A stretch of DNA of 64,000 bases from Candidatus Aminicenantales bacterium (GTDB lineage Bacteria > Acidobacteriota > Aminicenantia > Aminicenantales > Saccharicenantaceae): the NCBI GenBank assembly GCA_049512315.1, contig JBEKXF010000030.1:1-64000 (forward strand), read 5' to 3'. The position numbers and the translations under genes were made by a program. Below the pieces are notes generated by a model. The model saw nothing but the letters and a program-made list of their open reading frames with translations. It was not told the DNA's origin and did not search any database. This document shows, one piece after another, positions 27,519 through 42,963 of the stretch. How positions within the stretch are numbered: position 1 is the first letter of the stretch; every line of letters begins with the position of its first letter.

Positions 27519-28064
27519 CTACAGAGCGCCGATCCGCTTGAGGCCCTCCCGGAGGGCTTCCTGGACCCTTTCGATCCGCTCCGGGGCCCAGGCCGGAGCG
27601 CCGCCCGCCCGGTCGAAGAAACGCGGGCTCGCGAAGTTGAAGACCCGGCCGTTCCTGCGATGGCGGTATCGAAAATCGATCTCCGGGTGTCCGAAAACGA
27701 GCATCATCATGGTTGCCGCCATCCTGGTCAGGGGCGGCCTGTCGAGGTGGCCGTGACGGAACCGGGCCGTGACTTTCGTCCCCTTCAGAGGGGCGGACTC
27801 GATGGCCACGGTCCCGCCGCAGAGCCCGGCCGTCTGGGCCAGGAGGGCCAGGCCGAGGCCGGTCCTCTTGCGCTTGGTCGTGAAAAAAGGGTCCAGGGCC
27901 CGGTCGAGCTCCTCTCCCGTCATCCCGCGGCCGTCGTCCGTCACCCGGACCGTCAGGAGGTCCCGGCGCTCGTTCTCGTTGACGGCGATCTCGATCCGCC
28001 CCGCCCCGGCCGAGATGGCGTTCTCGGCCAGATCGAGGATGTGGAAAGACAGGTCCTCCATCAT
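27519..28064 (-). CDS. Stand-alone HATPase_c (histidine-kinase-like) protein of the hydrogenase-associated cluster
   Basis: LDLAENAISAGA (N box), DDGRGM (G1), DPFFTTK, GLGL, HLDRPPL. Confidence 0.85.
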   Translation of the reverse strand: MMEDLSFHILDLAENAISAGAGRIEIAVNENERRDLLTVRVTDDGRGMTGEELDRALDPFFTTKRKRTGLGLALLAQTAGLCGGTVAIESAPLKGTKVTARFRHGHLDRPPLTRMAATMMMLVFGHPEIDFRYRHRRNGRVFNFASPRFFDRAGGAPAWAPERIERVQEALREGLKRIGAL

Positions 28065-28831
28065 GACGGATGGACCTCCCGGCCTTCCCGGCCGGCCAGG
28101 GCTTTCCGGATCTCCTCAAGGCTCGGCCGGGCCAGGAGGAATTCCATGGCCGCCCGGCCGATTTCCTCGGGCCGATGGGCGTCGGAGAACCGGACCAGAG
28201 GATGCGCGGTGCGCGGCCCGAAGGTCGCCCGGGCCTGCGCGTACGTCATGAGCGGCGAGACCTCGACGGCGTCGAGCTCGAGGTCGGGGGGGATGAAACC
28301 GAGCTGAGAGATGATGCTGAAGGCCTCCCGGTCGATGTGGGACGCGACGGCCAGACCGCCGTGCTTGTGGATGAGTCCGACGGCCTCGTAGACGGTCAGC
28401 CGGGTCGCCCCGATCAGGCAGTGCGGATTGAAACCCGTGACGCCGTCCTCCGCGTCGACGATCACCTGGTCCTTGACGAAGGACCTCTTCGAAGGGACGT
28501 CGGGCAGGTTCTCGTAGACGACTGCGAGAAGCGGCCCGAGGTCCGTCCCCGCCTCGAACAGACCGAGAATGTGGGCTTCCTCCTCGGTGGCCAGTTCCAG
28601 GCCGGGCAGGACGACGAGGCCGGTTCCCGCCGCGGCCTCGGCCACGGCGCCCGCGTTCTCTGTCGAATTATGGTCGGTGACGGCGATGATGTCGAGGCCC
28701 GTGGCCCGGGCCCGCTCGACGACGGCCCGGGGGTACATCGATAGCTCTCCGCAGGGCGACAGACACGTGTGGATGTGGAGGTCGGCCCGAAATCGCCTGA
28801 GCTCCTCAGGACCCCTTGACCCCGAGCCCAT
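28061..28831 (-). CDS. PHP-domain phosphoesterase
   Basis: DLHIHTCLSPC, TDHNS, SHIDR, SDAH; start approximate. Confidence 0.88.
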   Translation of the reverse strand: MGSGSRGPEELRRFRADLHIHTCLSPCGELSMYPRAVVERARATGLDIIAVTDHNSTENAGAVAEAAAGTGLVVLPGLELATEEEAHILGLFEAGTDLGPLLAVVYENLPDVPSKRSFVKDQVIVDAEDGVTGFNPHCLIGATRLTVYEAVGLIHKHGGLAVASHIDREAFSIISQLGFIPPDLELDAVEVSPLMTYAQARATFGPRTAHPLVRFSDAHRPEEIGRAAMEFLLARPSLEEIRKALAGREGREVHPS

Positions 28832-29147
28832 GAAGCCTTCCGACGAGTTCGAATGCCGCGGCCGGGGCCCCGAGAATGGGTACCCCTTCTTTCTCCGCCC
28901 GCTCGACCGTCTCGGCGGCCGGCTCCCGGCCGTTGACGAGGACGATCCCGGCGAGCTCCTTCAGGACGGCCACCGCGACGATATTCGGGTGGACCTGGAT
29001 GGTGACCCAGAGGTCGTCCTTCCCGGCGTGGGCCATCACGTCGCTGAGGAGGTCGCCCGCGTAGCCGCCGGCGACCGGCCGGTCGAGCTTCCCTTCCGCC
29101 GCAAAAACCTTGAGGTCGAGGCGTGTCACCAGGTCCGTGAGTTTCAT
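28806..29147 (-). CDS. DRTGG-domain protein
   Basis: GGYAGDLLSDVMA, WVTIQVHPNIVAVA. Confidence 0.85.
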   Translation of the reverse strand: MKLTDLVTRLDLKVFAAEGKLDRPVAGGYAGDLLSDVMAHAGKDDLWVTIQVHPNIVAVAVLKELAGIVLVNGREPAAETVERAEKEGVPILGAPAAAFELVGRLHGLGVKGS

Positions 29148-30421
29148 CGTTTCTCCTTTTCAACGAACGGGCAGTCGGCGAGACGGGCCAGGCCGCGGAC
29201 GATGTCGTCCGCCAGCGTCCGGCAATCCGGTGCCCCGCAGGCCCCGCAGTCCTTGCGCGGCAGATTCGCGATGAGCTTTTCCCGGCGCTTGGCCTTGAGG
29301 ATGGCCCGGGCGGGGTCGGGGTCGAGGGGCGGCGTTTCGACGGGCGCCACGGGGTGGTCGAACGACAGGAAATTCTTGTGGTAGAGCCGGCTCATGTCCT
29401 TGTGGTCGACGACGGCCCGGTCCCCCGCCGCGTCGACGAGCTGGAGGATGCGGCTCTTCGCCAGGAAACGGTTCTCCACCTGGAGCGGCCCGCCGACGCA
29501 TCCGTCCGGGCAGACCGTGCACTCGAGGAGGTCGATGTCCTGGAGGAGGCCCGCCTCGACCTGGTCCAGGACCCGCATGGTGTCCTGGACCCCCGAAACG
29601 GCGACGGCCCGGTGGTTCTTGAACCCCCGGGTCTCGCCGCCGGAGAGGGACCAGCCCATCCCGATCCCGCTGAACAGGGTTTCCGGGAAAAGATGGCGCA
29701 TGAGCGCGTCATCCTGGCTCTTCCGGAGGGAGTTGAGGACCTGCGGGTAGATGTCCCGGATCGAGATCGCCCCGTCGAGGTAAGATTTTTCGAGGGTCGC
29801 GGGGCTGTTGATGGAAACCATCTTCGCCGGGCAGGGCGTCAGGTGGATGATCCCGATCTTTTCGGGCGGCAGGTGCAGGGCCCTGGGCAGGATGGCCCTG
29901 AGGATCTTGGCCGCGATCTCCCGGGGCGGCTCGATCGGCAGAATCTGCCTGCAGAGCGCGGGGTAGCGCCGCTGGATGAGCCGGACGACGACCGGGCAGG
30001 TGGAGGTGATGAACGGCCGGGGCTGGGGATGCTCGTTGAGGTATTCCTCGATGGCGGCCGTGTTGAGCTCGCAGATCGCGCTGGGGTCGTAGACCTCGTC
30101 GAACCCGATCCGGCGCAGGGCGGAGAGAATCTCGTTGGGCAGAGTCGTGCTGCCGAACTGCCCATAGATCACGGTCGAAGGGATGGCCACCTTATAGGCG
30201 AAGGCGTCGAGGGCCGCGAACGACGTCGTGTGGGAGTGGACGGCGTCGTAGGGACAGAAGCGAAGACATTCACCGCAGTCGATGCAGTACTCGTCGATGA
30301 TCCGGGCTTTCCCGTCCTTGACCCGGATCGCCTTGGTCGGACAGACGGTCATGCAGTGGACGCAGCCGACGCATTTGTCCTTCGTGATATGGATCGCGTG
30401 ATAATGCTGTGTTTCTTTCAT
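29144..30421 (-). CDS. Divergent, putatively sensory [FeFe]-hydrogenase-like protein with a C-terminal Fe-S domain
   Basis: N-terminal 2x[4Fe-4S]; H-cluster-like motifs TSTCPVV, TPCPAK, ECTVCPDGCVGG; C-terminal LPRKDCGACGAPDC. Confidence 0.85.
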   Translation of the reverse strand: MKETQHYHAIHITKDKCVGCVHCMTVCPTKAIRVKDGKARIIDEYCIDCGECLRFCPYDAVHSHTTSFAALDAFAYKVAIPSTVIYGQFGSTTLPNEILSALRRIGFDEVYDPSAICELNTAAIEEYLNEHPQPRPFITSTCPVVVRLIQRRYPALCRQILPIEPPREIAAKILRAILPRALHLPPEKIGIIHLTPCPAKMVSINSPATLEKSYLDGAISIRDIYPQVLNSLRKSQDDALMRHLFPETLFSGIGMGWSLSGGETRGFKNHRAVAVSGVQDTMRVLDQVEAGLLQDIDLLECTVCPDGCVGGPLQVENRFLAKSRILQLVDAAGDRAVVDHKDMSRLYHKNFLSFDHPVAPVETPPLDPDPARAILKAKRREKLIANLPRKDCGACGAPDCRTLADDIVRGLARLADCPFVEKEKR

Positions 30422-30833
30422 GGTTGATGTCCGTTCGTGTGGATGGTGATCTCGAGATGGGTCCCCCGGCCGGCCCAAGACTCGATGCGGAAGGCATCGG
30501 CGTTTTTCCTGATGTTCGGCAGCCCCATGCCCGCGTCGCCGTCGAATAACCCTCCGTCATCGCCAGGTCGACGTCCGGGATGCCGGGCCCGCTGTCGTCG
30601 ACGGTGATCCGGACCTCGCCAGGAGATACAGCCAGTTTGACCCGGCCCTCCCAGGCGTACATGATGACGTTCATTTCAGCCTCATAAGAGGCGATGGCGG
30701 CCCGGCGGACGATCGGGGCGTCGAGGCCCAGCTCTTTCAGAAGGTCCTTGATCCGGCAGGCCACGGCCCCGGCCTTGGCGAAGTCGCCTCCCTTGACGGG
30801 AAACTCCTGGCGGAAGACGGCGTCACCGGCCAT
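30418..30833 (-). pseudogene. RsbT/anti-sigma-type Ser/Thr kinase, frameshifted at 30534/30535
   Basis: YEAEMNV, DDSGPGIPDVDLAMTEGYSTA in one frame; AGMGLPNIRKNADAFRIES continues in another frame and ends in an ATGA overlap with the next gene. Confidence 0.8.
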
Positions 30834-31176
30834 GGATCCTGCCCCCGAAGAGAGCCGAGATCCGCGAACACGCCTCGAACATCGGTAGCTTCGTGGCGAT
30901 GAGCGGCAGGCCCTTCGCCCGGGCCTGCTCGAGGACGTCCGCGCCCGGGCGCTTGCCCTGGACAAAGACGACCGCCGCCATGTCGGCCACCGAGCACGTA
31001 GAGATAACGTGGGGATTAGCCAGGCCCGTCAAGAGGAAGGAGCCGGGCTCGGCGGAGGTCAGGACATCGCTCATGAGATCAGAGGCGAAGACCGCCGGGC
31101 ATTCGAGCCCGAGGGGGCTCCCAGGCGTCAGCAGCTCGCCGTTGATCCCGGTCATGATATCCTTCAGCGTGATCAT
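30823..31176 (-). CDS. DRTGG-domain protein
   Basis: ASDLMSDVL, LLTGLANP, FVQGKRP. Confidence 0.85.
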   Translation of the reverse strand: MITLKDIMTGINGELLTPGSPLGLECPAVFASDLMSDVLTSAEPGSFLLTGLANPHVISTCSVADMAAVVFVQGKRPGADVLEQARAKGLPLIATKLPMFEACSRISALFGGRIHGR

Positions 31177-31253
31177 CGGAGTTTCGCCTCCCGTCGGATC
31201 TTGCGGGGTCCTTTCCTCCCGGCCTCGCCGGACAGCCCCTGGCCCCATTCTCT

Positions 31254-31282
31254 ATTATATGATGAGGGTGGCGGGCAGGCAA
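31254..31282 (-). promoter_or_regulatory. sigma70 promoter of the DRTGG/sensor operon
   Basis: TTGCCT-17 bp-TATAAT. Confidence 0.7.
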
Positions 31283-31369
31283 GGCGCGTCCTTTGATCGG
31301 TCCGGGGCCGGGCTTTTTCTTCCGTCGGGGGAAAGACGGTCCGGGGATGACCCGCGGAGGCGAGGCCAT

Positions 31370-31414
31370 AAAAAAGGCCGGAGGGAGGAGGGTTTCCCCC
31401 TCCTCCCCCCGGCC
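31370..31414 (-). terminator. Rho-independent terminator after the glutamate-synthase-family gene
   Basis: Long GC stem followed by a T6 run on the minus strand. Confidence 0.85.
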
Positions 31415-31440
31415 GGAGGTAAATCAGCCCGTCGAGGCGC

Positions 31441-33019
31441 TTATTTCGCCTTGAGGATCTTCTGGACCTCGGACTTGTCGACGTCCGTGATGTACGGAAT
31501 GCCGCTGATGTCCGACGCCTCTTTCGTCAGGGAGGCGAGGTCGTCCCGGGTGATGTAGTCCAGAGTGAACTTACGCCCCCCCGCCATGAACTGCCGCAGG
31601 CCCTGGCTCAGCCGCTTGAAGTAGGTGTAAAGACCGATCGCGCCCGTCGGCAGGTCATCGAACCGTTTCCCGTATTTTTTCTTGAGCTCGGGGGCCGTGA
31701 CGAAGATCTCCTCTTTGCTCGTGCCGAAGCGTTCGACGTAGACGGGCATCTGGCCGTCCGTGATCCGGCTGCCGATCGTCTTGCCCACCATGGCCGACGC
31801 CAGGGGGGACCGGGCCATGCCCACGCACTTGACGAAGGGCGCGCCGAGGGCCAGGGCCTTGAAGATCTGGTCCTCGAAGGTGATGCCGCCGGCGAAGGCG
31901 ATATCGGGGACGAATTCGCCCTGCTTCTTGAGCTGGGCGGCGTACATGTAGGTCAGCGACCAGATCTCGACGGTCGGGACGCCCCACTCGTTCATCATCC
32001 GCCAGGGGCTCATGCCCGTGCCGCCGCCGGCCCCGTCCACGGTCAGGAGGTCGAGCTTGGCCTTGGAGGCGTATTTCACGGCCCGGGCCAGGTCGGCGGG
32101 CCGGTAAGCGCCCGTCTTGAGGAAGACGTGCTTGGCGCCGAACTTGCGGAGCTCCTTGACCCGCTTCATGAAGTCCTCTTCGTCGACCATCCCCAGGCGG
32201 GAATGGCGCTCAAATTCCTTGAAGCTGCCCTTCTCGAAGGCCGCGATGATGTTGGGGTCCTCGGGGTCGGGAAGGACGATGTAGCCCCTCTTCTTAAGCA
32301 TCTGGGCCTTCTTGAGGGTCTTGATCTTGACCTCGCCGCCGATGTCCTTGGCGCCCTGGCCCCACTTGAGCTCGACAACATCGACGCCGAGTTTGTCGAG
32401 GGCGTATTCCTGGGTGCCCAGGCGGGTGTCCTCGACGTTGGACTGGACGACGACCGCGCCGTAGCCGGGCTCCTGCCAGTCCTTGTAGGACTTAACCCGC
32501 ATCTCCATGTCGGGCGAGCGGACGATCCGGCCGTTCTTGATCTCGGACTCGTCGTCCATGCCGCAGACGTTCTCCCCGACGGTCAGGATGGACCCGGAGA
32601 TGGCCGCGCCGACGGCCAGGCCGGGCCAGTTCTGCTTGGCGACGTTGGTCGAGCCCATGCCGGAGATGATGAACGGGACCTTGAGCTTGATCCCCTCGCC
32701 GCGGCCGATCTTGGTCTCGATGGTCACCTTCTCGAAGGTCGCCTTGTCGCTGTCGGCCGGCACACCGCAGGCGCCCTTGGCCGTGCCCATGATGCTGAAG
32801 TGGGACAGGTCGACGGGGTAGTCCTTCTCGCCGCCCGCGGTGATGATCCCGAACGGCTGAGGGTAGAGGACCTCGGCCCCGCGGTAGGCGGACTTCCCGA
32901 TCTCGCACATCCCGATGCACCCGTCGACGCAGGTCACGCACATCCCGCTGAAGGGACTGACGGATCCCTCGGTCCGTCAGGGTGGCTGCGCTTCGGTTGA
33001 GTCTCGTGAAACTCGGCAT
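31441..33019 (-). CDS. Stand-alone FMN-binding glutamate synthase family protein; frameshift near the 5' end (32975/32976), intact ORF 31441-32943
   Basis: ELKWGQGAKDIGGE, LKTGAY, DGAGGGTGMSP, AGGI...KALALGA; N-terminal CxxCxxxCxxxC; GAGGAGG RBS precedes the out-of-frame ATG at 33019. Confidence 0.85.
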
Positions 33020-33079
33020 GAAATTACCTCCTCATATCCTTTGTTGTTTTATCTTCATGGTCATGAATCATGGCCACAG

Positions 33080-33760
33080 TCAGGTTTTTTCCCGGACGCA
33101 GGTCCCGCACCGGCCGGCGTCGTACATCCAACACTGGAGGTCGTCGTAATAGTCGAGGCAGGTCGGGTCCATGGTCAGGCAGCCGTTGCAGAGAGTCGTC
33201 TCCGCCTGCGGGCCCTGGCAGCGGAGCTGGCAGGCGGGGCAGACGTACATGCAGGCGCCGCACAGCCGGCAGGTCTCCGAGCGGATGTCGAAAGGGGTCG
33301 AGATCTTCGTCTTGTAGCCCCGCTGCTGGAAGCCGATGGCCCGGGCGTCCATCTGCTCCGCGCAGATCCGGACGCACCGGCCGCAGAGGATGCACTCCTC
33401 GTGCCGCGGCTCGAACCGGACCTGGGTCACCCCGAACTGCGAGGCCAGATCCTGGAGGACCTTGGACCCGGGGGCGACCGAGACCATGAGCTCGATCATC
33501 ATCTTCCGGGCCGCGATGACCCGCTTCGTGTCCGTCCGGACGACGAGCCCCTCCTCGACTGGATAGGTGCAGGAGGAGACGAGCTTGGCCCTGGTGCCCT
33601 CGCCGATCTCGACGACGCAGAGCCGGCACCCGCCGTAGGGAGTCAGCCCCTCGTAATAGCACAGGGTCGGGATCTCGAGCCCGTAGAACTTGGCCGCCTC
33701 GAGGATGGTCCAGCCCTCCTCGGCGCTCACTTCCAAGCCGTTCATGCGAAAGGTGATCAT
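33080..33760 (-). CDS. Short NuoG/HydA-N-terminal-like Fe-S subunit without an H-cluster (BfuA-like)
   Basis: IPTLC...GGCRLCVVE...SSC ([2Fe-2S]); CILCGRCVRIC; CRLCGACMYVCP; extra Cys-rich tail. Confidence 0.85.
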   Translation of the reverse strand: MITFRMNGLEVSAEEGWTILEAAKFYGLEIPTLCYYEGLTPYGGCRLCVVEIGEGTRAKLVSSCTYPVEEGLVVRTDTKRVIAARKMMIELMVSVAPGSKVLQDLASQFGVTQVRFEPRHEECILCGRCVRICAEQMDARAIGFQQRGYKTKISTPFDIRSETCRLCGACMYVCPACQLRCQGPQAETTLCNGCLTMDPTCLDYYDDLQCWMYDAGRCGTCVREKT

Positions 33761-33768
33761 GTTTTCCC

Positions 33769-35586
33769 TCAGATGATTTGGATGGCCTCTTCGCGCTGGG
33801 CCTCGATGGCCTCGAACCGGCAAGCCTCCTGGCAGGCTCCGCACTTGATGCACTTCGTCTGGTCGATCAGGTGGACATCTTTCAGCGTCCCCTTGATGGC
33901 CTGCGTCGGGCAGGCGTTCTTGCAGGATTGGCAGCCGGTGCACTTCTCGGCGACGACGACGTAGCGGATGAGGGCCTGGCAGACGCCCGCCGGGCACCGC
34001 TTGTCCAGGATGTGGGCTTCGTACTCGTGGCGGAAATACTGGAGGGTGGTGAGAACCGGGTTGGCCGCCGTCTGGCCGAGGCCGCAGAGAGAGGCGTCCT
34101 TGCATGTCCGGGCCACTTCCTCGAGGACCTCGAGGTCCTTCTCCGTGCCCTTGCCCTCGGTGATCTTCTTGACGATCTCCCACATCCTCTGGGTCCCTTC
34201 CCGGCAGGACACGCACTTGCCGCAGGATTCGTCGCGGAGGAAGTTGAGGAAATACTTGGCGATATCGACCATGCAGGTCTTGTCGTCCATGACGATCATG
34301 CCGCCCGAGCCCATCATGGCCCCGGCTTCGGTCAGGCTTTCGTAATCGATGGGCAGGTCCAGGAGCTTGGCGGGGATGCAGCCGCCCGACGGCCCGCCAA
34401 TCTGGACGGCCTTAAATTCGTGGCCGCCGGGAATGCCGCCGCCGATGCCGAAGACGATATCCCGGAGGCTGATCCCCATCGGGACTTCGACCAGCCCCGT
34501 GTTGTTGATCTTGCCGACGAGCGAGAAGATCTTGGTGCCCTTGCTCGTCTTCGTCCCGAGGGCCGAGAACCATTTGGCCCCGCGGAGGATGATGTTGGGC
34601 ACGGTGGCCCAGGTCTCGACGTTGTTGATCACGGTCGGCTTTCCCCAGAGGCCCTTATTGGCGGGATACGGGGGTCGCTGACGGGGCATGCCGATCCGCC
34701 CCTCGACCGACGCGATGAGCGCGGTCTCTTCGCCGGAGACGAAGGCTCCCGCGCCCTGGACGATTTCGAGGTCGAAATTGAAGCCGGTCCCCAGGATGTC
34801 CTCGCCGAGCAAGCCGTTTTCTCTCGCCTGCCGGATGGCGATCTCGACGCGCTTGAGGGCCAGCGGGTATTCGTGCCGGATGTAAATGAAGCCCTTCTCG
34901 GCCCCGACGGCCTTGGCCCCGATGACCATGCCTTCAAGGATCGCGTGGGGGTCGGCTTCAAGAACGGACCGGTCCATGAACGCGCCCGGGTCGCCCTCGT
35001 CGCCGTTGCAGATGAGGTACTTGGGCGATCCCTTGGCCGCGCGGCCGGCCGCCCACTTCTTCCCCGTGGGAAAACCGGCGCCGCCCCGCCCCCGGAGCCC
35101 GGAGGCCGTGATCTCGGAGATGATCTTTTCGGACGTCATCTCCGTCAGGGCCTTCCCCATGGCCTCGTAGCCGTCGAAAGCGATGTATTCCTCGGCTTTT
35201 TCCGGGTCGATCCGGCCACGGTTGCGGAGGACGATGAGCCGCTGGTGCTTGAAGAACTCGATGTCCTTCATCTTCGGGATCGGCTCTTTCTCCTCGGGGG
35301 GGATGTACATTAGCTTCTTGACGGGCCGGCCCTTGATCAAATGCTCTTCGACCAGGAAGGGGATGTCCGAGACCTTGAGCTGCTGGTAGAAGACGCCGTC
35401 GGGGTGGACCATGAGGATCGGGCCCCTCTCGCAGAACCCGTTGCAGCCCGTCGCGATGACGAGAATCTCGTCCTGGAGCTTCCGCTTTCGGATTTCCTTC
35501 TCGAGGGCCTCCTTGATCTTGAAGGCCCCGCAGGAAACGCACCCGGTGCCGGCGCAAACCAGAAGATGTGCTCGATATTGTTTCAA
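33769..35586 (-). CDS. HydB/NuoF-like NADH/FMN subunit with N-terminal [2Fe-2S] and C-terminal 2x[4Fe-4S] (BfuB-like)
   Basis: GLRGRGGAGFPTG, GDEGDPGAFMDR, GAGAFVSGEE, GGPSGGC, ESCGKCVSCREG, EAHI..KRCPAGVC. Confidence 0.92.
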   Translation of the reverse strand: MKQYRAHLLVCAGTGCVSCGAFKIKEALEKEIRKRKLQDEILVIATGCNGFCERGPILMVHPDGVFYQQLKVSDIPFLVEEHLIKGRPVKKLMYIPPEEKEPIPKMKDIEFFKHQRLIVLRNRGRIDPEKAEEYIAFDGYEAMGKALTEMTSEKIISEITASGLRGRGGAGFPTGKKWAAGRAAKGSPKYLICNGDEGDPGAFMDRSVLEADPHAILEGMVIGAKAVGAEKGFIYIRHEYPLALKRVEIAIRQARENGLLGEDILGTGFNFDLEIVQGAGAFVSGEETALIASVEGRIGMPRQRPPYPANKGLWGKPTVINNVETWATVPNIILRGAKWFSALGTKTSKGTKIFSLVGKINNTGLVEVPMGISLRDIVFGIGGGIPGGHEFKAVQIGGPSGGCIPAKLLDLPIDYESLTEAGAMMGSGGMIVMDDKTCMVDIAKYFLNFLRDESCGKCVSCREGTQRMWEIVKKITEGKGTEKDLEVLEEVARTCKDASLCGLGQTAANPVLTTLQYFRHEYEAHILDKRCPAGVCQALIRYVVVAEKCTGCQSCKNACPTQAIKGTLKDVHLIDQTKCIKCGACQEACRFEAIEAQREEAIQII

Positions 35587-35595
35587 GGCTCCCTC

Positions 35596-35988
35596 TCAGT
35601 ACACGGTTTCGCTGCCGATCGCCAGGGCGTAATCGGGCACCAGACGGCCGCAGAGGATGTGTTCGGCGAAGATCTTCCTCATTTTCTGCGGGGTGAGGTC
35701 GACATACTTGACCGGCGGCTGGCCCTTGAACTCGACGGTCGCCATCGGTTCCCGGTTGCACAGCCCGGCGCAGCCGGATGTCGCTACGATCACGTCCTGG
35801 ACCTTGTTCTTCCGGACCTCGTCGAGGAGGGCCTCCATGACTTCGCGGGCGCCGGCGGCAATCCCGCACGTGCCCATGTGGACCGTCACCTTCGCCCGGC
35901 CCTCGCTTCCGCGGATGGTCGTCAAGGCCCTCGTTTTTTCGCGGATCTTCGCTAAATCCTGGATGCGGAGTTTCTTCTTTTCGGCCAT
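35596..35988 (-). CDS. Thioredoxin-like [2Fe-2S] ferredoxin subunit (HydD/HndB-like)
   Basis: VHMGTCGIAAGA, SGCAGLCNREP. Confidence 0.85.
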   Translation of the reverse strand: MAEKKKLRIQDLAKIREKTRALTTIRGSEGRAKVTVHMGTCGIAAGAREVMEALLDEVRKNKVQDVIVATSGCAGLCNREPMATVEFKGQPPVKYVDLTPQKMRKIFAEHILCGRLVPDYALAIGSETVY

Positions 35989-36461
35989 CAGCTTTCCTTT
36001 CCTTTCTGATACTTTTTCAGGATCGTGCCGACTTTCCGGATGGTCGCATGGCCGTAGTAGGTTTCGTCGACCACGACGACGGGCCCGATGGCGCAACAAC
36101 CGAGGCAAGCGACCGTCTCCAGGGTGAATTGGTTGTCCTTCGTCGTCCCCCCGGCCTCGATCTCCAACTGGCGCTCGAATTCGTCGAGGATCTTCGGCCC
36201 GCCCCGGACGTGGCAGGCCGTCCCCATGCAGATCAGGCAGGTATGTTTTCCCCGGGGGGTGAGGCTGAAGGCGCGGTAGAACGTGGCCACGCCGAGGACG
36301 TCGATCAGGGACATGCCCAGGGCGTTCGCGACCTCGCGGAGGGACTCGGCGGAAAGGTAATGGTGTTTGTCCTGGATGTCCAGGAGGATGGCGATGAGGT
36401 TCTTCTTGAGCCCCTGGTGCTTCTTGATGATGGATTGGATCTTGTTTTTTTCGACGTCCAA
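35988..36461 (-). CDS. HydC/NuoE-like [2Fe-2S] subunit
   Basis: GVATFY, CMGTACHVRG, VACLGCCAIGP; GAGGAGG RBS before TTG. Confidence 0.92.
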   Translation of the reverse strand: MDVEKNKIQSIIKKHQGLKKNLIAILLDIQDKHHYLSAESLREVANALGMSLIDVLGVATFYRAFSLTPRGKHTCLICMGTACHVRGGPKILDEFERQLEIEAGGTTKDNQFTLETVACLGCCAIGPVVVVDETYYGHATIRKVGTILKKYQKGKES

Positions 36462-36673
36462 AGCTATCCCTCCTCTGGGCGGATGGAATCGGAATCCGGG
36501 CGGTCGGACGCGGAGGCGGTCCTCCTGGACAGGGCGGAGACGGGGAAGTGGCGCAGTGCGGAGGGAGAGGGGGGGGTCGGTCGGCCGACCTTCGAAGCGC
36601 CTAATGCGGCTGAGGACTTCTGGTTAAAAATATAAAACTCCAAAAAGCCAAACGCCACAAAAATAAGATTGGG

Positions 36674-36703
36674 GTTATACCAGAACGAATTCGGCTTTGT
36701 CAA
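36674..36703 (-). promoter_or_regulatory. sigma70 promoter of the HydCDBA-like/glutamate synthase operon
   Basis: TTGACA-18 bp-TATAAC. Confidence 0.6.
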
Positions 36704-36763
36704 GTGCCACCCCCGACCCAAAACGGCGGTTGCGCGGATCGCGGGGACCACGAGGCACGCCGC

Positions 36764-37117
36764 TTAGGGATCGGCGACTTCGATCTCGATCTTTTCGACG
36801 ACGAGGTCCATGCCGCCGACGAGCTCGATGTCCGTCGAGCCGCAGGAGGCGCAGGCGGTCGCCGGGTCTTCGAGAAACGCGTTCCCCCCGCAGCGGCGGC
36901 ACTTGAAATCGAACGGAGCGACCTCGATCTCGAGGCAAGAGCCCTCGGCCAGCGTCCCCTTTTTGATGGTGTCGAAGGCCGATTCGATGAGGTCGGGGAC
37001 GACTCCCGAGAGCCGGCCGACCCGGAGCTTCACGGCCGTGATCCGGACTGCGTTCTGCTCGCGGGCCTTTTCTTCGAGGATCTCGAACAGGCTGGCGACG
37101 ATCGAAAGCTCATGCAC
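36764..37117 (-). CDS. hypA: Hydrogenase nickel metallochaperone HypA
   Basis: MHELS (GTG start), two CxxC motifs. Confidence 0.92.
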   Translation of the reverse strand: MHELSIVASLFEILEEKAREQNAVRITAVKLRVGRLSGVVPDLIESAFDTIKKGTLAEGSCLEIEVAPFDFKCRRCGGNAFLEDPATACASCGSTDIELVGGMDLVVEKIEIEVADP

Positions 37118-37781
37118 GGCCGGCCCGCTCCCGGGCAAGGGCGTCGGCGAAGAAGGCGGCCAGCTTATCCATCCCCTCTCCCTTGAGCGCCGAGACCCGG
37201 AAAACCCTGAGCCGGGGGTTGACGGTCAGAGCTTCCGCGGTCGCCTTGTCCGGGTCGAACGGCAGAAAGGGGACGAGGTCGGATTTGGTCAGGATGAGGA
37301 CGTCCGCCGTTAGGAAGGCCTGGGGGTATTTCTTGGGCTTGTCGTCACCCTCCGGCGACGAGAGGAGGACGCAGCGCAGGCTTTCGCCGAGGTCGAAGCC
37401 GGCCGGGCAGACGAGATTCCCGACGTTCTCGATAAAAAGGAAGTCGATCGCCGCGGGGACGTCCGGGAGGACCTTGCCGACCATTTTCGCCTCGAGATGG
37501 CAGGCCCCGCCGGTCGTGATCTGCCAGGCCGGGACGCCCTTGGCCCGGATGCGCTCGGCGTCGCGTTCGGTCTCGATATCACCCTCGATGACGGCCATCC
37601 GGTATGTCGTCCCCATCCGGTCCGCCAGAGCCTCGAGGAGGGCCGTCTTGCCCGAGCCCGGTGAGCTCAGGAGATTGACGCAGAGGATGCCGCGGCTCCG
37701 GAGCTCCCGCCTGATCTCCGCGGCGACCTGCTTGTTGGTCCCGAGGAGGTCCTTGAGGACGAGGACGTCTTTTTTCGTCAC
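37110..37781 (-). CDS. hypB: Hydrogenase nickel GTPase HypB
   Basis: SSPGSGKT, GGACHLEA, ENVGNLVCPA, EGDDKPKKYP. Confidence 0.95.
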   Translation of the reverse strand: MTKKDVLVLKDLLGTNKQVAAEIRRELRSRGILCVNLLSSPGSGKTALLEALADRMGTTYRMAVIEGDIETERDAERIRAKGVPAWQITTGGACHLEAKMVGKVLPDVPAAIDFLFIENVGNLVCPAGFDLGESLRCVLLSSPEGDDKPKKYPQAFLTADVLILTKSDLVPFLPFDPDKATAEALTVNPRLRVFRVSALKGEGMDKLAAFFADALARERAGRA

Positions 37782-38302
37782 GCTGCGTGTCCTTTTTTGG
37801 AGAATGGTTTTTTCAGGAACCCTTCGAGGAAGCGGACGGCCTCGCGGAGGTCCCTCTCGGCCCGCGGCGACAGCCCCTCGCCGACGCCCCAGCGGTGCCC
37901 CCGGATGGCCAGCAGATGGGCCTCCGGCCTCCGGCCGTAGAGCCCGGCGCAGACCGCCAGCACGGCGCCCGGCCCCATGGCGTGGGTCATCGCGGGGACG
38001 GGGGCTTCGGGTCTGACCTCGGTCCAGGTGAACGGGGCCCGGAGGGCCCGGGCCGCGTCGACGAAGACGACGATGTCGTGTTGGGAGCAGGCGAGGGCGT
38101 CCTCGACATTAAGCTGGTAATTGGCGTCGCAGGTCACTCCCGGAAGGCCGAGGGGCTCCAGATGCTCGACGGCCGCGGTCCCCAGCCCGTCGTCCCCGCG
38201 GCCGGGATTGCCGATCCCGAAGACGAGGACCCGGCGCAGCGCCTTTTTCGGCCGGGGAATTATCGGACCTTCCTCTGGAGGACGTTTCCGTTCGGATCGC
38301 AC
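37778..38302 (-). CDS. Hydrogenase maturation protease (HoxW-like)
   Basis: GIGNPGRGDDGLG, VFVDA, THAM; GAGGT then GTG at 38302 (start approximate). Confidence 0.88.
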   Translation of the reverse strand: MRSERKRPPEEGPIIPRPKKALRRVLVFGIGNPGRGDDGLGTAAVEHLEPLGLPGVTCDANYQLNVEDALACSQHDIVVFVDAARALRAPFTWTEVRPEAPVPAMTHAMGPGAVLAVCAGLYGRRPEAHLLAIRGHRWGVGEGLSPRAERDLREAVRFLEGFLKKPFSKKGHAA

Positions 38303-39708
38303 AGCGTGACCTCGAGGGGCATGAGGCCGACGGCGTGGGTGGCGCAGCTCAGGCACGGGTCGTAGGCCCGGATGGCCACCTCCACCCGGTTCAGCATCCC
38401 TTCCGTGATCTCGGGCTTCTCCGAGAGGGCGTTCTCCGCCACCCAGTGGACGGCCCTGTTCATGGGCTCATTGTTGTTCGTCGTCGAAACGATCAGGTTG
38501 GCCATGGTGATCTGGTCGTCCGCGTTGACCCGGTAATGGTGGAAAAGAGTCCCCCGCGGCGCCTCGACCAGGCCCACCCCTTCGGACACCCGCTTTCCCA
38601 GCTTGACGAGCTTTGTCCCCTGGAGGTCCTTGTCGCGCAGGAGCTCCTTGATGACCTCAGCCGAATGGAGGAGTTCGATGAGCCGGGCCCAGTGCGAGTG
38701 CAGGGACATGTTGTTGGGCTTTCCGTCGGTGTAGGCCTTGTAGATCTCGAACTCCTTTTGGGCCAGGGGCGAGGGGATGTGATCGCAGGTGTTGAGCCGG
38801 GCCAGCGGACCGACCCGGTACCAGCCGGCCGACTTGCCCAGGGACTTGAGGAACGGAAATTTCATGTAGCTCCAGGGGCGGATCTCTTCCCCGATGTACT
38901 TGAGGTAATCCTGATAATCGACGTCGTTAAGGACCTTGTGGCCGTCCGCGTCCACGGCCCTGAGGACGCCGTGGTAGAAGTCCAGGGCGCCGTCCTTGCG
39001 GACCAGGCTCAGGTGGTTCGACGGGAATTCGGCGAAACCGTCGATGACGGCCTTGTTCTTCTTGTGATAGTCCTTGAAGAAGTCGACGGCCGCCTGGGCC
39101 CAGGCGATCATCTGGTCGATATTGAGGGGGGCAGGCCCCTTGAGGAACGTGTCCCTCTCCTCGGGGCTCAGGTTCTTGTTGACGCCCCCCGGCACGGCGC
39201 CCGTGCCGTGGATCTTCTTGCCCGCCGTGGCCAGGATGATCTCCTGCCCGAACTTGCGGAGCAGCACACCCTGGACGGCCAGGTCCCTGTTCAGGGCGAC
39301 GACGCCGATGATGTTCCGGACGGCCGGGTCCGCATCCATCCCTAGCAGGAAGTCGGGCGAGGCGAGGTGGAAGAAGTGAAGGGCGTGGGACTGGAGGATC
39401 TGGCCGTAGTGCATGAGCCGCCTCATCTTCTCGGCCGTGGGCGGCAGCCCCTTGGGGCCCGTGCCGACGATGACGTCCATGGCCTTGGCGGCGGCCAGGT
39501 GGTGGCTGACCGGGCAGATCCCGCACAGCCTCTGGACGAGGACCGGGGCCTCCCAGTACGGCCGTCCCTGGACGAACCGCTCAAAGCCGCGGAACTCGAC
39601 AATGTGGAAACGGGACTGGGTGACCTTCCCCTTGTCGTCCAGGTGGATGGTCACCTTCCCGTGGCCTTCGACCCGAGTGACGGGTTCGATCGTGATCTTG
39701 CGTGCCAT
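38260..39708 (-). CDS. hoxH: Group 3d [NiFe]-hydrogenase large subunit
   Basis: EPVTRVEGHG; L1 QRLCGICPVSH; L2 YDPCLSCATH plus a cleavable tail. Confidence 0.95.
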   Translation of the reverse strand: MARKITIEPVTRVEGHGKVTIHLDDKGKVTQSRFHIVEFRGFERFVQGRPYWEAPVLVQRLCGICPVSHHLAAAKAMDVIVGTGPKGLPPTAEKMRRLMHYGQILQSHALHFFHLASPDFLLGMDADPAVRNIIGVVALNRDLAVQGVLLRKFGQEIILATAGKKIHGTGAVPGGVNKNLSPEERDTFLKGPAPLNIDQMIAWAQAAVDFFKDYHKKNKAVIDGFAEFPSNHLSLVRKDGALDFYHGVLRAVDADGHKVLNDVDYQDYLKYIGEEIRPWSYMKFPFLKSLGKSAGWYRVGPLARLNTCDHIPSPLAQKEFEIYKAYTDGKPNNMSLHSHWARLIELLHSAEVIKELLRDKDLQGTKLVKLGKRVSEGVGLVEAPRGTLFHHYRVNADDQITMANLIVSTTNNNEPMNRAVHWVAENALSEKPEITEGMLNRVEVAIRAYDPCLSCATHAVGLMPLEVTLCDPNGNVLQRKVR

Positions 39709-39721
39709 GCTCGTTCACCCT

Positions 39722-40267
39722 TCAGTCATACTTGATGAGGTCGTAGGTCAGGTTCAGGGGCCTTCCCTCGACGAGGGCCGTCAGGGCCTCCCAGATGAGG
39801 TCGGCCGACGGCGGGCAGCCCGGCAGGAAATAATCGATTTTCACGATCTCGTGGCAGGGATAGACCTTGTCCAGGATGATGGGCAGCTCTTCGTCGTCCG
39901 GGATGAGCCGGTCGGCCGGGTCCACGGTCGGACTGTTCATGTAGGCCTCGTCGAGGCATTCCTTGAGGGGGATGCCGTTGCGCAGGGCGGGCAGCCCGCC
40001 CATGATGGCGCACTCGCCGACAGAGACCAGGATCTTGCAGTTGTTCCGGAAATACCTGAGGACCTCGACGTTCTCGCTGTTGCAGCAGCCGCCCTCGATG
40101 AGGCCCACGTCGACGGCCTTGGTGAATTTCTTGATGTCGTCGATGGGCGACTTGTTGAACTCCACGAGCTCGATGAGCTTGAAGATCCGGTCGTCGATGT
40201 CGAGGAGCGACATGTGGCAGCCGAAGCAGCCGGCCAGTGAGGCGGTGGCGATGACGGGCTTGTTCAT
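39722..40267 (-). CDS. hoxY: [NiFe]-hydrogenase small subunit
   Basis: GCFGCHMS, VGECA, PGCPP; short single-cluster type. Confidence 0.93.
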   Translation of the reverse strand: MNKPVIATASLAGCFGCHMSLLDIDDRIFKLIELVEFNKSPIDDIKKFTKAVDVGLIEGGCCNSENVEVLRYFRNNCKILVSVGECAIMGGLPALRNGIPLKECLDEAYMNSPTVDPADRLIPDDEELPIILDKVYPCHEIVKIDYFLPGCPPSADLIWEALTALVEGRPLNLTYDLIKYD

Positions 40268-40271
40268 GATC

Positions 40272-40976
40272 TCACCTCGCGGATCCTTCCTCGACGTCGC
40301 TGCCGATGGGTTTTTTGTCGAATTTCCGCTTCCCGATGGGCACGGCGAAGCCGACCTCCTTCCTTAGGATGGCGCCCACGGGGCAAATGTCCATGGCCTT
40401 ACGGGCCTCCTCATCGTTGAGGCGCGCGGCTAGGTCGCGGTCCACTTCAATTGTCACCTGCCGGGTCCGGCCCCTGGAGGCGAAAACCTTCCGCCCGTCC
40501 TTGGCCCGGACGGCCCGGACGCAGCGGAGGCACTGGATGCACCGGTTCCGCTCGAGCATGATCTTAGGGCTCGACGCGTCGAGGTCCCGGACGGGGAAGA
40601 GATATGGAAAGCGGGGGGCCGTGATCCGGTACCGGTAGGCGAGGGCCTGGAGCTCGCAGTTGCCGCTCTTCTCGCAGGTCGGGCACATATGGTTGCCCTC
40701 GACGAAGAGCATCTCGAGAAGGGCCTTCCGCATGTCCTCGAGGTCCGGGACCGTGTTTTCGATGGTCATGCCCTCGGCCACCGGCTGGGTGCAGGCGGCC
40801 ATGTACCGGCCGCCGACCCGGACCGTGCAGATGCGGCAACTACCAACGGGCATGAGCCCTTCATAATGGCATAGCACGGGGATGTAGACGCCGTTCGCCT
40901 TGGCGGCCTCGACGATGGTCTGGCCCGACTTCGCCAGGCACCCCTTGCCGTCGATGGTGAATCGGATCTCAGTCAT
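40272..40976 (-). CDS. hoxU: Diaphorase Fe-S subunit
   Basis: IPVLC...GSCRIC, HMCPTCEKSGNC, CIQCLRC. Confidence 0.92.
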   Translation of the reverse strand: MTEIRFTIDGKGCLAKSGQTIVEAAKANGVYIPVLCHYEGLMPVGSCRICTVRVGGRYMAACTQPVAEGMTIENTVPDLEDMRKALLEMLFVEGNHMCPTCEKSGNCELQALAYRYRITAPRFPYLFPVRDLDASSPKIMLERNRCIQCLRCVRAVRAKDGRKVFASRGRTRQVTIEVDRDLAARLNDEEARKAMDICPVGAILRKEVGFAVPIGKRKFDKKPIGSDVEEGSAR

Positions 40977-42777
40977 GGAGGGACTCCTTGCACTCGGGCT
41001 GGCGGTTGGCCGCCGTGCAACCGTCCTGGATGGCCTCCCGGAGATCGAAGTCCGGGACGAAGTCGACGCCCTTCCGGACCTTCGCCTCATAGAGCTCGCG
41101 GAAGCTCTGGAGGGTCGTCAGGATCGGGTTGGGCGAAGTCTGGCCCAGCCCGCACCGGCTCGTCGTCTTGACCAGCTTCCCCCAATCCTCGAGGTCCTTG
41201 AGGTCCTGGTCCGTGCCCCGGCCCTGGACGACCTTTTCGAATTTCTTTTTCAGGAGGACGTTGCCCGCCCGGCAGGGGGTGCACCAGCCGCAGGACTCCT
41301 CGACGAAAAAGTCCATGAAATTGCCGACGATCTCAAAGATGTCGCGCTCCGGCCCGAAGATGATGACCGAGCCGCCCGTCGAGAGGTCCGAGAAACAAAT
41401 CTTTCTCTGGAAGCCGGCCCGCGAGAGGCAGGTCCCGGAGGGGCCGCCGACCTGGACGGCCTTGGCGTCCGGGGCCCCGGCCATCTTCAGGAGGTCCTCG
41501 ACGGTCAGGCCGAACTCGACCTCGTAGACGCCGGGAGAGGCGCAGTCCCCGGAGACGCTTAGGAGCTTGGTCCCCGAAGACTTCGCCGTTCCCATGGTCT
41601 TGAACCAGGCCGCGCCGTGAACGAGGATCTGGGCGGCCGTAGCCAGGGTCTCCACGTTGTTGACGGTCGTCGGCTGGTTGAGATAGCCGACCTGGACCGG
41701 GAACGGCGGCCTGTCACGCGGCTCTCCCCTTTTCCCCTCGGCCGATTCGAGAAGGGCGGATTCCTCCCCGCAGATGTAGGCGCCCGCGCCTGATTTGATC
41801 GTGACGTCGAAGTCGAAACCCGGCGCCCCCGCGATCTTCTTCCCCAGGACGTTCTCCCGGCGAAGGCCGTCGAGGACGGATTCGAGGTAAGGCTTCAGAT
41901 AAGAGTATTCGGCCCGGAGATAGAGGACACCTTCCCTGGCGCCGACCGCGTAGCCGGCCACGGCCATGCCCTCGAAGAGGAGCCGCGGCAGCTCGGTCAG
42001 GATGACCCGGTCCTTGAACGTGCCTGGCTCTCCCTCGTCGGCGTTGCAGACGACATAGTGCCGGTCGGCCTTTTCCTTCCGGCAGAAATCCCACTTGAGC
42101 CCCGTCGGGAAGCCGGCCCCGCCGCGGCCCTGAAGGCTCGACTTCTTGACCTCGTTGATGACCCCTTCGGGTTTCATCGCGATGGCTTTCCTGACGGCGG
42201 ACCCGGACTCGAACGGGCCGAAAAGGACCGGGCCCCGCTTCCGGATGTTGTTCGAAACCATAGCCCGGACGAGGTCGGACTGGTTGGCGCCGTCTCCGAA
42301 AGCTTTGACCATGTCCCGGGCGGACCGGCCGGCCCGCAGGTCCCGGACGATGTCCCTGGCCTTTTCGGCCGTTAAATTCGTGAAGACGACGCCATTGACG
42401 ATGGCCGAGGGCTCCTGGTCGTTCATCCCGATGCAGGACGTCGGGAAGAGCCCGAGGAGGCCGTCCGCCGCGACCTCGCCAAACCGGCAGCCCGCCTCCT
42501 CCTCGAAGGCCCGGGCCACGGCGGCCCGGCCTTTCATCCGGGAGGTGATGGAGTCGTTCAGGAAGATGGCAGCCGTCCCTCGGGGAGCAAGGGAAAAGAA
42601 GTGGTAGTAGGTCACGACGCCCCGGACCTCGGCCTCGGAAAGCTTGAGGTGGCGGGCGATCTCGGACACGGCCTCGGCGGGAACGCGGCCGGCCCAGGCC
42701 TGGACGTCCCGGACGATGTCCAGGAGCCTCGACGGGTCCTTCCGGTGCTTGAGGATGATCTCTTTATAGTGTTCCAT
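40969..42777 (-). CDS. hoxF: Diaphorase flavoprotein, NuoE-NuoF fusion
   Basis: N-terminal NuoE-like domain with degenerate Cys ligands; GRGGAGFPTG, EGEPGTFKDR, GAGAYICGEE, ESCGWCTPCR. Confidence 0.92.
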   Translation of the reverse strand: MEHYKEIILKHRKDPSRLLDIVRDVQAWAGRVPAEAVSEIARHLKLSEAEVRGVVTYYHFFSLAPRGTAAIFLNDSITSRMKGRAAVARAFEEEAGCRFGEVAADGLLGLFPTSCIGMNDQEPSAIVNGVVFTNLTAEKARDIVRDLRAGRSARDMVKAFGDGANQSDLVRAMVSNNIRKRGPVLFGPFESGSAVRKAIAMKPEGVINEVKKSSLQGRGGAGFPTGLKWDFCRKEKADRHYVVCNADEGEPGTFKDRVILTELPRLLFEGMAVAGYAVGAREGVLYLRAEYSYLKPYLESVLDGLRRENVLGKKIAGAPGFDFDVTIKSGAGAYICGEESALLESAEGKRGEPRDRPPFPVQVGYLNQPTTVNNVETLATAAQILVHGAAWFKTMGTAKSSGTKLLSVSGDCASPGVYEVEFGLTVEDLLKMAGAPDAKAVQVGGPSGTCLSRAGFQRKICFSDLSTGGSVIIFGPERDIFEIVGNFMDFFVEESCGWCTPCRAGNVLLKKKFEKVVQGRGTDQDLKDLEDWGKLVKTTSRCGLGQTSPNPILTTLQSFRELYEAKVRKGVDFVPDFDLREAIQDGCTAANRQPECKESLHD

Positions 42778-42963
42778 GATGATACCCCATGAATGAGCGT
42801 CATAGTTTAGCATAAAAGGGGATCCAAAAAAATAGTCAGAGATCCGGTCCCGGGTCCGGCCCCGAGCCGGGGTGGGGGGCAATTTTTGGGCTTGCATTTT
42901 TCCTTGAAAACAGGTTAAGATGGGGCTAGAACAATCCGGATAGGACCCTGTGAAGGAGGAATC

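Follow-up and report, generated by a model that had tools for sequence, protein, structure and literature searches.

What might an electron-bifurcating enzyme core be doing beside a protein that resembles glutamate synthase? The question is raised by a five-gene operon in a 64,000-nt stretch of DNA, hereafter the window (GCA_049512315.1, contig JBEKXF010000030.1, positions 1-64,000), from a Candidatus Aminicenantales bacterium (Saccharicenantaceae), in which the genes for BfuC, a small thioredoxin-like protein, BfuB and a short BfuA are followed by that of a GltB-like flavin mononucleotide (FMN) protein. The five products may together form one soluble Type 2 Bfu (HydABC-like) iron-sulfur flavoenzyme, working as an ammonia-dependent, glutaminase-less glutamate synthase that uses NADH and reduced ferredoxin, a reading that we propose tentatively and, taken whole, rate somewhat below an even chance.

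Positions 36712-31376 of the minus strand form a single compact unit of promoter, five genes and terminator, in agreement with an original prediction from the window sequence, which had set a five-gene unit between a promoter at ~36700 and a terminator. The sigma-70-like promoter (TTGACA-N18-TATAAC, 36683..36712, minus strand) was found by eye, and is unlisted in our consensus promoter scan because that scan demands a T at position 6 of the second hexamer. A leader of ~210 nt separates it from the gene of BfuC, a NuoE-like [2Fe-2S] subunit of 157 aa (35988..36461; TTG start after GGAGGG; PF01257, E 3.8e-49). On the same minus strand follow the genes of the small thioredoxin-like [2Fe-2S] protein of 130 aa (35596..35988; PF01257 at 23.4 bits, cut-off 24.8), whose start overlaps the BfuC stop by 1 nt, of BfuB, a NuoF-like subunit of 605 aa (33769..35586) identified by its Pfam domains and an end-to-end alignment with 7t2r_B, of the short BfuA of 226 aa (33080..33760, ATG at 33760; matches to Fer2_4 and Fer4_7), and of the GltB-like FMN TIM-barrel protein, 528 aa when intact (31441..33019; partial match to PF01645, E 1.4e-18). 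An intrinsic terminator (31376..31414, minus strand; 17-bp stem with 14 GC pairs, loop of 5, T6 tail) closes the unit, and the view that the five genes form one unit is supported. As had been predicted for H-cluster, molybdopterin, NiFe and amidotransferase subunits or domains, Pfam detected none of these in the five proteins, nor any GXGXG or GltD domain. Rfam gave no significant match in 30400-37300, leader included, and no sigma-54-like motif was seen in the leader of the window; such a motif lies 5' of BfuC in only 4 of 60 related loci, and NtrC-type activators nonetheless flank 18 loci.

Is the core of the bifurcating type? BfuB consists, in order, of an N-terminal thioredoxin-like [2Fe-2S] domain, an FMN/NADH domain, a [4Fe-4S] site, a His/Cys segment and a C-terminal 2x[4Fe-4S] ferredoxin domain, and it aligns end to end with 7t2r_B, a solved bifurcating NiFe-HydB (residues 3-594 of 597, E 7.7e-258), with 7q4v_B, 9n5u_B, 9mqx_B and 7p5h_B as further strong solved matches (HydB, NfnB and WorB being almost as good). 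Pfam recognizes the NuoF-type FMN/NADH domain with the N3-type [4Fe-4S] cluster, B1 (PF01512, E 1.7e-48; PF10589, E 5.3e-34), as well as PF00037 and PF13237 at residues 543-595. The bifurcating-type features that had been claimed for this HydB-like protein hold up: GAFMDR, GAGAF, GGPSG, YEAHILDKRCPAGVC, the N-terminal Cys pairs and two C-terminal CxxCxxCxxxC motifs are all in the translation and match 7t2r_B residue for residue, ESCGKCVSCREG and SLCGLGQ align to the same chain, and C11, C16, C47 and C51, then HILDKRCPAGVC, then CTGCQSCKNACP and CIKCGACQEACR, align with the motifs of both 7t2r_B and 7q4v_B. In the main text of the Bfu survey of Schut et al. 2022 (PMC9304861), the N-terminal [2Fe-2S], the His/Cys segment and the C-terminal 2x[4Fe-4S] are given as Bfu-specific extra clusters of BfuB, missing in non-bifurcating NuoF homologues, and F182, A202 and M204 of the Acetomicrobium mobile enzyme as Bfu-specific residues of the NADH/FMN site. 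A202 and M204, both of GAFMDR, are retained in BfuB with the same numbering; BfuB has R182, and an A where A. mobile has F180, and the published F182 finds no place on the alignment.

BfuC matches PF01257 over its whole length, the four Cys of CLICMGTACH..CLGCC align to HydC (8a6t_C), and the solved proteins most similar to it (8a6t_C, 7p5h_C, 9mqx_C and 7t2r_C, E about 1e-38) are each the C subunit of a bifurcating enzyme. The 130-aa protein finds its best match in the N-terminal domain of NfnB (9n5u_B, residues 7-92, E 2.4e-13) and amounts to the N-terminal domain of BfuB encoded as a separate gene, to which the label HndB/HydD presumably applies. Taken together, a bifurcating type of BfuBC core is supported by these alignments. 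The unit thus resembles the NiFe-HydABCSL (7T2R) and FeFe-HydABC (7Q4V, 7P5H, 8A6T) enzymes in that BfuB is collinear with HydB and BfuC resembles HydC, and differs from these bifurcating hydrogenases in having no hydrogenase subunit or H-cluster domain. A second Bfu operon exists in the host genome (contig C19:106-7063; L098), in the order BfuC, ferredoxin-type BfuB, BfuA with a molybdopterin (formate-dehydrogenase-type) domain, an NfnA-like and an NfnB/GltD-like protein; since it has its own BfuB, 74% identical to that of the window, the latter is a dedicated paralogue.

In the short BfuA, a [2Fe-2S] domain and a ferredoxin-like domain of the 2x[4Fe-4S] kind are followed by a C-terminal stretch peculiar to the family, with eight conserved Cys; a comparison of 30 sequences drawn from many phyla showed no variation at C177, C181, C191 and C194 and very little at C201, C210, C218 and C221. 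By Pfam it contains neither PF10588 (the His-ligated cluster, which is detected in the HoxU of the window) nor a catalytic domain, and a separate FMN subunit adjoins, which is the Type 2 layout. Among solved structures this BfuA comes closest to WorA, from the Type 2 Bfu enzyme WorABCSL (9mqx_A, E 2.6e-38), and WorB and WorC are strong matches to the other subunits too. In the A. mobile WorABCSL complex (PDB 9MQX; PMC12318220), a short BfuA uses a C-terminal zinc finger and helix to connect the core with a separate catalytic module. Both systems combine a BfuBC core, a short BfuA lacking a catalytic domain or His-ligated cluster, and a separate catalytic subunit; they differ in the partner, an FMN TIM barrel here and the tungstopterin protein WorL with its WorS nanowire there, in the end of BfuA, where eight conserved Cys without counterpart in WorA take the place of zinc finger and adaptor helix, and in the extra small thioredoxin-like subunit encoded here. 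AlphaFold2 models the first 120 residues of BfuA confidently and gives residues 139-226 a predicted local distance difference test score (pLDDT) below 50, as might be expected for a metal-binding or partner-dependent region, and says nothing more.

What, then, is the fifth protein? It is the best candidate for the catalytic (third-substrate) module. PF01645, the FMN (beta/alpha)8 domain that it has in common with E. coli GltB of the GltBD enzyme, is its sole significant Pfam family (67.7 bits against a cut-off of 20.4), a match to inosine monophosphate (IMP) dehydrogenase being sub-threshold, and its AlphaFold2 model scores a pLDDT of 84.5 and a predicted template modelling score (pTM) of 0.87. 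Matches to it were found among 1122 of 1.84 billion cluster representatives at E <=0.001 and 188 at <=1e-30, and an ESM Atlas search returned PF01645-named clusters only. Aligned by hhalign to the FMN domain of E. coli GltB, it reached a probability of 80% (E 1.4e-5); a direct profile search with E. coli GltB aligned the FMN-phosphate region alone. The comparison was extended by way of P0240, a natural fusion protein of 800 aa (2x[4Fe-4S] ferredoxin domain, F420-type FrhB-like module, GltB-like domain), which matches both P0001, the nearest homologue of the window protein (E 7e-48, 30% identity over residues 28-510, with the N-terminal Cys motif in both), and E. coli GltB (E 6e-6). Via P0240, Q224-G-A-K227, R274 and GGTGMSP of the family correspond to Q934-G-A-K937, R957 and GGTGASP of E. 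coli, and ELKWGQGAKD-IGGE, FERHS and DGAGGGTGMSP to IKVAQGAKPGEGGQ, KLRYS and GYDGGTGASP; the GG..D..KA..LGA motif is kept as well. We take the Gln, Lys and Arg of these motifs to hold 2-oxoglutarate in glutamate synthase, and the GGTG motif to hold FMN.

The resemblance to glutamate synthase (GltS; structures 1OFD, 7MFM and 2VDC were among the fold matches or papers) has its own features. Behind QGAK the loop of the family is ~17-20 residues longer than in E. coli GltB, owing to a conserved insertion, and the [3Fe-4S] motif of the latter (C-x5-C-x4-C, CKYLRICHLNNC at residue 1102) aligns to a Cys-free stretch of the family, whose N-terminus instead bears C30-x2-C33-x3-C37-x3-C41, preceded by the conserved peptide NRSAATLTKNRT. 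This N-terminal CX2CX3CX3C motif, a Bfu core as predicted donor and the lack of a direct significant match to solved GltS set the protein apart from GltBD, as does the missing amidotransferase: neither PF00310 nor PF01493 (GXGXG) was matched in the FMN subunit or in the whole host genome (96.6% complete). Fused forms of at least 925 aa were not found, which is weak evidence. P0240 corresponds to FGltS, a putative F420-dependent glutamate synthase with an FrhB homologue that is proposed from genomes alone in PMC3448663; there too a glutaminase-less GltS-type FMN unit is joined by a separate electron-input module, which is an FrhB homologue (F420H2) in FGltS and BfuABC here, with no FrhB domain in the five proteins. 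Since the FMN unit is paired with either a Bfu core or an FrhB-like module, it looks like a portable catalytic module fed by different input modules.

The evidence that ties this module to the Bfu core is comparative. With one genome scanned per species, relatives of the FMN gene turned up in at least 505 genomes, and the best 80 loci were analysed, from Aminicenantes, Zixibacteria, Planctomycetota, Bacteroidota, Ignavibacteria, Actinomycetota, Thermoplasmatales, Methanophagales and others; across these, from Aminicenantes to Planctomycetota and the Thermoplasmatales and Methanophagales archaea, the FMN subunits are 67-85% identical. A short BfuA lies directly 5' of the FMN gene, on the same strand, in all 79 testable loci (the sequence of the 80th, L028, begins 290 nt before the FMN gene, and its upstream side is not judgeable), and BfuB is present in 73 of the 74 loci with sufficient upstream DNA. 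The sole exception to the linkage (L008:7429-9575) has a truncated BfuA, aligned from residue 56, and the FMN gene; the 7.4 kb upstream hold unrelated genes. BfuC was detected in 63 of 80 loci, and among the other 17 only L008 and L026 have space for it. Two variants of layout were also seen: BfuC is ~283 aa long in 29 loci, with the NuoE domain at residues 15-149 of the representative (L065:3193-4041) and a C-terminal extension behind it, and one Aminicenantes locus (L043:414-9575) has a tandem pair of core sets ahead of the FMN gene, in the order BfuC, BfuB-GltD fusion, BfuC, ferredoxin-type BfuB, divergent BfuA, family-type BfuA and FMN gene.

The same association is seen within the class of the host, sampled with 121 genomes at least 85% complete, which are kin and have no p-value attached. 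The high-identity FMN gene occurs in 51 of them, and a BfuA with the long C-terminus (at least 57% identity, Cys-rich end covered) in exactly those 51 and none of the other 70; the two genes are adjacent in 50 of the 51, and in the remaining genome (G038) both are at contig ends. Four more genomes have a paralogue of 42-43% identity; the long-C-terminus BfuA is absent from all four, and in G051 the 42% paralogue does not adjoin Bfu genes. Co-occurrence of this GltB subfamily with HydB-like genes, the check suggested with the original prediction, came out in its favour (BfuA 79/79, BfuB 73/74, 51/51 against 0/70), and the genetic linkage can be called obligate. Presence of the operon splits within genera (7/9, 1/2 and, beside the host itself, 0/2), because of which it is not one inherited block.

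Which pathway does the operon keep company with? In the window, a large NAD-specific glutamate dehydrogenase (GDH) of 964 aa is encoded 4 kb downstream (24507-27401, minus strand) and is the only clear GDH of the host genome, which has two genes for glutamine synthetase (GS) and in which searches found no GXGXG, GATase_2, small GDH or PF01645 protein beyond the operon and IMP dehydrogenase. The PF01645 match on host contig C8 proved to be this IMP dehydrogenase and not a second GltB-like protein. By neighbour clustering with Pfam on representatives, a small GDH accompanies 13 of the 80 loci, a glutamine synthetase 7, and either of them 18, often within 300 nt and on the same strand; such loci come from Aminicenantes, Zixibacteria, Acetothermia, Ignavibacteria, Phycisphaerales, Coatesbacteria, Vulcanimicrobiota, Bacteroidota and two archaeal lineages, with Lrp/AsnC-glnA-operon (Aminicenantes) and GDH-operon-GS (the archaeal L027 and L036) as recurring orders. 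These surroundings speak for a role in glutamate and nitrogen metabolism.

The immediate neighbour on the upstream side, also on the minus strand, is a complete Hox-type operon for a NAD-linked [NiFe] hydrogenase (36764-42897), comprising a NuoE-NuoF fusion (40969-42897), the HoxU-like gene with its PF10588 match (40272-41090), the hydrogenase small (39722-40267) and large (38260-39708) subunits, a 192-aa ORF (37778-38356), HypB (37110-37781) and HypA (36764-37138). Downstream, a further minus-strand unit (28061-31248) with its own promoter (31282-31254) encodes a small protein starting MITLKDIM, then an anti-sigma/HATPase-like kinase, a sensory-type FeFe-hydrogenase-like protein (29144-30478; Fe_hyd_lg_C, Fer4 and PF04060), a gene of this last kind adjoining the operon in 6 of 80 loci, and a PHP-domain protein (28061-28831); its kinase-like gene contains a frameshift near 30540-30560. 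The order of sensory unit, operon and HypAB is retained in two genomes of a sister genus. In G015, of the same genus as the host, the operon is absent and a small GDH sits at the syntenic place; from HypA to the sensory unit, this locus (L097, G015:C1:18000-35000) encodes a 754-aa fusion of NfnA- and NfnB-like parts, a hybrid histidine kinase, a 695-aa histidine kinase with a fused FeFe-hydrogenase-like domain, a response regulator, a TPP enzyme that is split, a thioredoxin-like [2Fe-2S] protein standing free and the small GDH.

How might such an enzyme work? NAD(H) would react at the FMN of BfuB and ferredoxin at its C-terminal 2x[4Fe-4S] domain, with BfuC and the thioredoxin-like protein carrying the [2Fe-2S] clusters of the bifurcating core. 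BfuA would serve as the wire, from its [2Fe-2S] and two [4Fe-4S] clusters through the Cys-rich C-terminus to the N-terminal four-Cys cluster and then the FMN of the GltB-like subunit, where the imine of 2-oxoglutarate and free ammonia would be reduced to L-glutamate by NADH and reduced ferredoxin together. The parts of this scheme differ in strength. It is very likely that the proteins assemble into a single complex whose catalytic subunit is the FMN protein; glutamate/2-oxoglutarate as the substrate, suggested by the homology of the GltS active-site motifs and by the GDH/GS neighbourhood, has a slightly better than even chance; and for an obligate use of both carriers by the ferredoxin-type form the balance is even.

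Several observations weigh against a glutamate synthase of this kind, and they are taken up here with the alternatives. A phmmer search of the PDB with the FMN subunit returned no natural relative, designed TIM barrels being the only matches; Foldseek and VIA-align did not rank GltS over alpha-hydroxy-acid oxidases and type-2 isopentenyl diphosphate isomerase (a tie); and the subunit has neither the [3Fe-4S] Cys motif nor the amidotransferase, central or GXGXG domains of a true GltS. Moreover, a small GDH occurs in 112 of the 121 host-class genomes and GXGXG in only 7, the operon being seen with and without either (6 of 9 genomes without a small GDH against 49 of 112 with one), and there is therefore no clear complementary pattern by which the operon would replace another glutamate-forming enzyme.

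The alternative that survives best keeps the same complex and electron path and changes the substrate to some other 2-oxo or imino acid, cyclic imine, enoate or other metabolite, the link to glutamate being one of regulation or pathway neighbourhood. It is favoured by a Pfam match confined to positions 185-302 of 369, by the lack of any NCBIfam model for the FMN-subunit family, by the insertion after QGAK, by the missing phyletic complementarity with GDH or glutamate synthase (GOGAT), and by the 62 of 80 loci that have no GDH or GS gene in the examined flanks. It has to contend with the retention of the QGAK, Arg and FMN motifs of GltS, with a GDH/GS adjacency that recurs across unrelated phyla and archaea, and with the FrhB-fused relatives, interpreted on bioinformatic grounds as putative F420-dependent glutamate synthases in PMC3448663. 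Weighing these, we consider a different substrate unlikely, without being far-fetched.

Would a glutamate synthase need both carriers? The first consideration is one of energetics, which counts against the proposed enzyme, and the second is the variable end of BfuB, which does so too. The couple of 2-oxoglutarate plus NH4+ and glutamate lies at about -0.13 V, far above NADH; because the acceptor couple has so high a potential, the enzyme would carry out a downhill confurcation, not a bifurcation that couples energy, and with downhill donors there is therefore no obvious rationale for an obligate coupling to both. As to BfuB, 27 loci have the form seen in the window, ending in a 2x[4Fe-4S] ferredoxin domain, and in 45 of 73 it bears instead a GltD/NfnB-like FAD module (Fer4_20 and Pyr_redox_2; ~1050 aa in all), from which it follows that ferredoxin is no constant partner of the family. 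The earlier statement that there is no GltD is thus right for the operon of the window and does not extend to its relatives, in which BfuB is fused to a GltD-like module, a likeness to GltBD. Cores nearly identical to that of the window (L002, 1020 bits; L003, 1024 bits) have different BfuB ends, which means that the exchange of the second donor site is recent; the separate small thioredoxin-like gene, found in 8 of 80 loci, goes with both forms of BfuB. The transhydrogenase NfnABC/Stn (PDB 9N5U) likewise joins a Bfu core to a glutamate-synthase-derived module, and the small protein of the window is most similar to the N-terminal domain of its NfnB, with the differences that its module is GltD-like, lies in BfuA and has NADP(H) as third substrate, that the module here is GltB-like, and that in the relatives of the window operon the GltD-like part sits in place of the BfuB ferredoxin domain.

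These points lend themselves to a second alternative, a glutamate-forming or -oxidising enzyme fed in the manner of NuoEF and not obligately bifurcating, in which one carrier suffices and the extra clusters pass or store electrons: the acceptor couple is far above NADH by the potentials just given, and the swap of BfuB ends (27 ferredoxin, 45 GltD-like), even on close cores, suggests an exchangeable second donor site. It meets two objections on the main text of the Bfu survey (PMC9304861), namely that BfuB has the cluster motifs of bifurcating NuoF homologues together with A202 and M204, and that the Wor-Bfu enzyme requires both acceptors though each reaction is exergonic; we hold it to be improbable. 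Schut et al. propose, in Table 1 of the same survey, high-potential Bfu types acting on quinone and peroxide, and by analogy an enzyme working on the glutamate couple would group with these. A possible gain from the coupling, and this is speculation, would be ATP-free ammonium assimilation at low ammonium.

A last point against the proposed enzyme is the state of the FMN gene itself. From its true start (ATG 33019, with the ribosome-binding site GAGGAGG before it), the reading frame shifts after 16 codons owing to an 8-base deletion at 32975/32976, and the open frame of the window runs over 31441-32943; frame A reads MPSFTRLNRSAATLTD.. and frame B, after a TGA, ..RTEGSVSPFSGMCVTC.., and homologues measure 526-528 aa (528 for P0001, which is 99% identical). 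Contigs from four public peat metagenome runs, belonging to four studies, were compared over 32500-33500. In all four, each contig otherwise identical to the window, eight extra bases stand behind 32975, with depths with insertion over total depth of 71.6/71.6, 7.9/7.9, 21/21 and 7.27/13.2, and the run with the highest support may be the source sample itself. By a derivation made by hand, these bases restore the frame and ..TLTKNRTEGS.., including K-N-R as in P0001. At 32832-32833 the window has CG and the contigs of all four runs AT, which encode at residue 66 of the intact protein Gly in the window and Cys in the contigs, as in most homologues, a further sign that the assembly departs locally from the population. 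The frameshift noted in the original prediction is therefore real in the window and specific to the assembly, not a property of the gene in nature; the deletion is probably an assembly fault or a rare variant, and the gene not dead. That the genes are mere neighbours, with BfuABC serving another enzyme such as the upstream NiFe hydrogenase and the FMN protein acting alone, or that the locus is decaying, is very improbable: the frameshift of this assembly and the second one in the next unit, the adjoining Hox-type operon, the truncated BfuA of L008 and the two same-genus genomes without the operon are outweighed by the hydrogenase operon's own NuoE-F fusion and HoxU, by the linkage (79/79) and co-occurrence (51/51 against 0/70), by the absence of the deletion from the contigs of all four runs, and by an FMN protein that is 67-85% identical across phyla, unlike a decaying gene.

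What would a Bfu glutamate synthase add to what has been described? Third substrates in the main text of the Bfu survey (PMC9304861) are H2, formate, NADP, F420, CO, pyruvate, aldehydes, aryl-CoA, quinone and H2O2; the words glutamate, GltB and GltD are absent from that text, and one supplement gave no match, the clade table possibly lying outside it. Full-text searches of the literature found no paper describing a Bfu/HydABC-type core with a GltB-like subunit, in line with the earlier remark that no enzyme of this kind has been characterised, and the operon probably represents an undescribed redox route into glutamate metabolism. A wider proposal, which we offer as doubtful, is that of a third, ATP-independent route of ammonium assimilation in anaerobes, in which NADH and ferredoxin (or, in the GltD form, a second pyridine nucleotide) would feed an ammonia-dependent, glutaminase-less glutamate synthase spread by gene transfer over at least 505 species-level genomes, bacterial and archaeal, with 2-oxoglutarate/glutamate as a new Bfu third substrate and, together with the adjoining GDH, a possible glutamate-based shuttle of reducing equivalents linking the pools of ferredoxin and of pyridine nucleotides.

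Being small, with four or five soluble subunits, and highly conserved, the unit is directly testable, and the swap of ferredoxin domain and GltD module on near-identical BfuB cores offers a natural experiment on the low-potential branch of Bfu enzymes. If the glutamate synthase reading is true, a reaction of nitrogen and amino-acid metabolism would join the list of Bfu third substrates, and glutamate metabolism would have a direct tie to the ferredoxin and NADH pools of uncultured anaerobes, the Aminicenantes, Zixibacteria, Planctomycetota and Thermoplasmatales among them.

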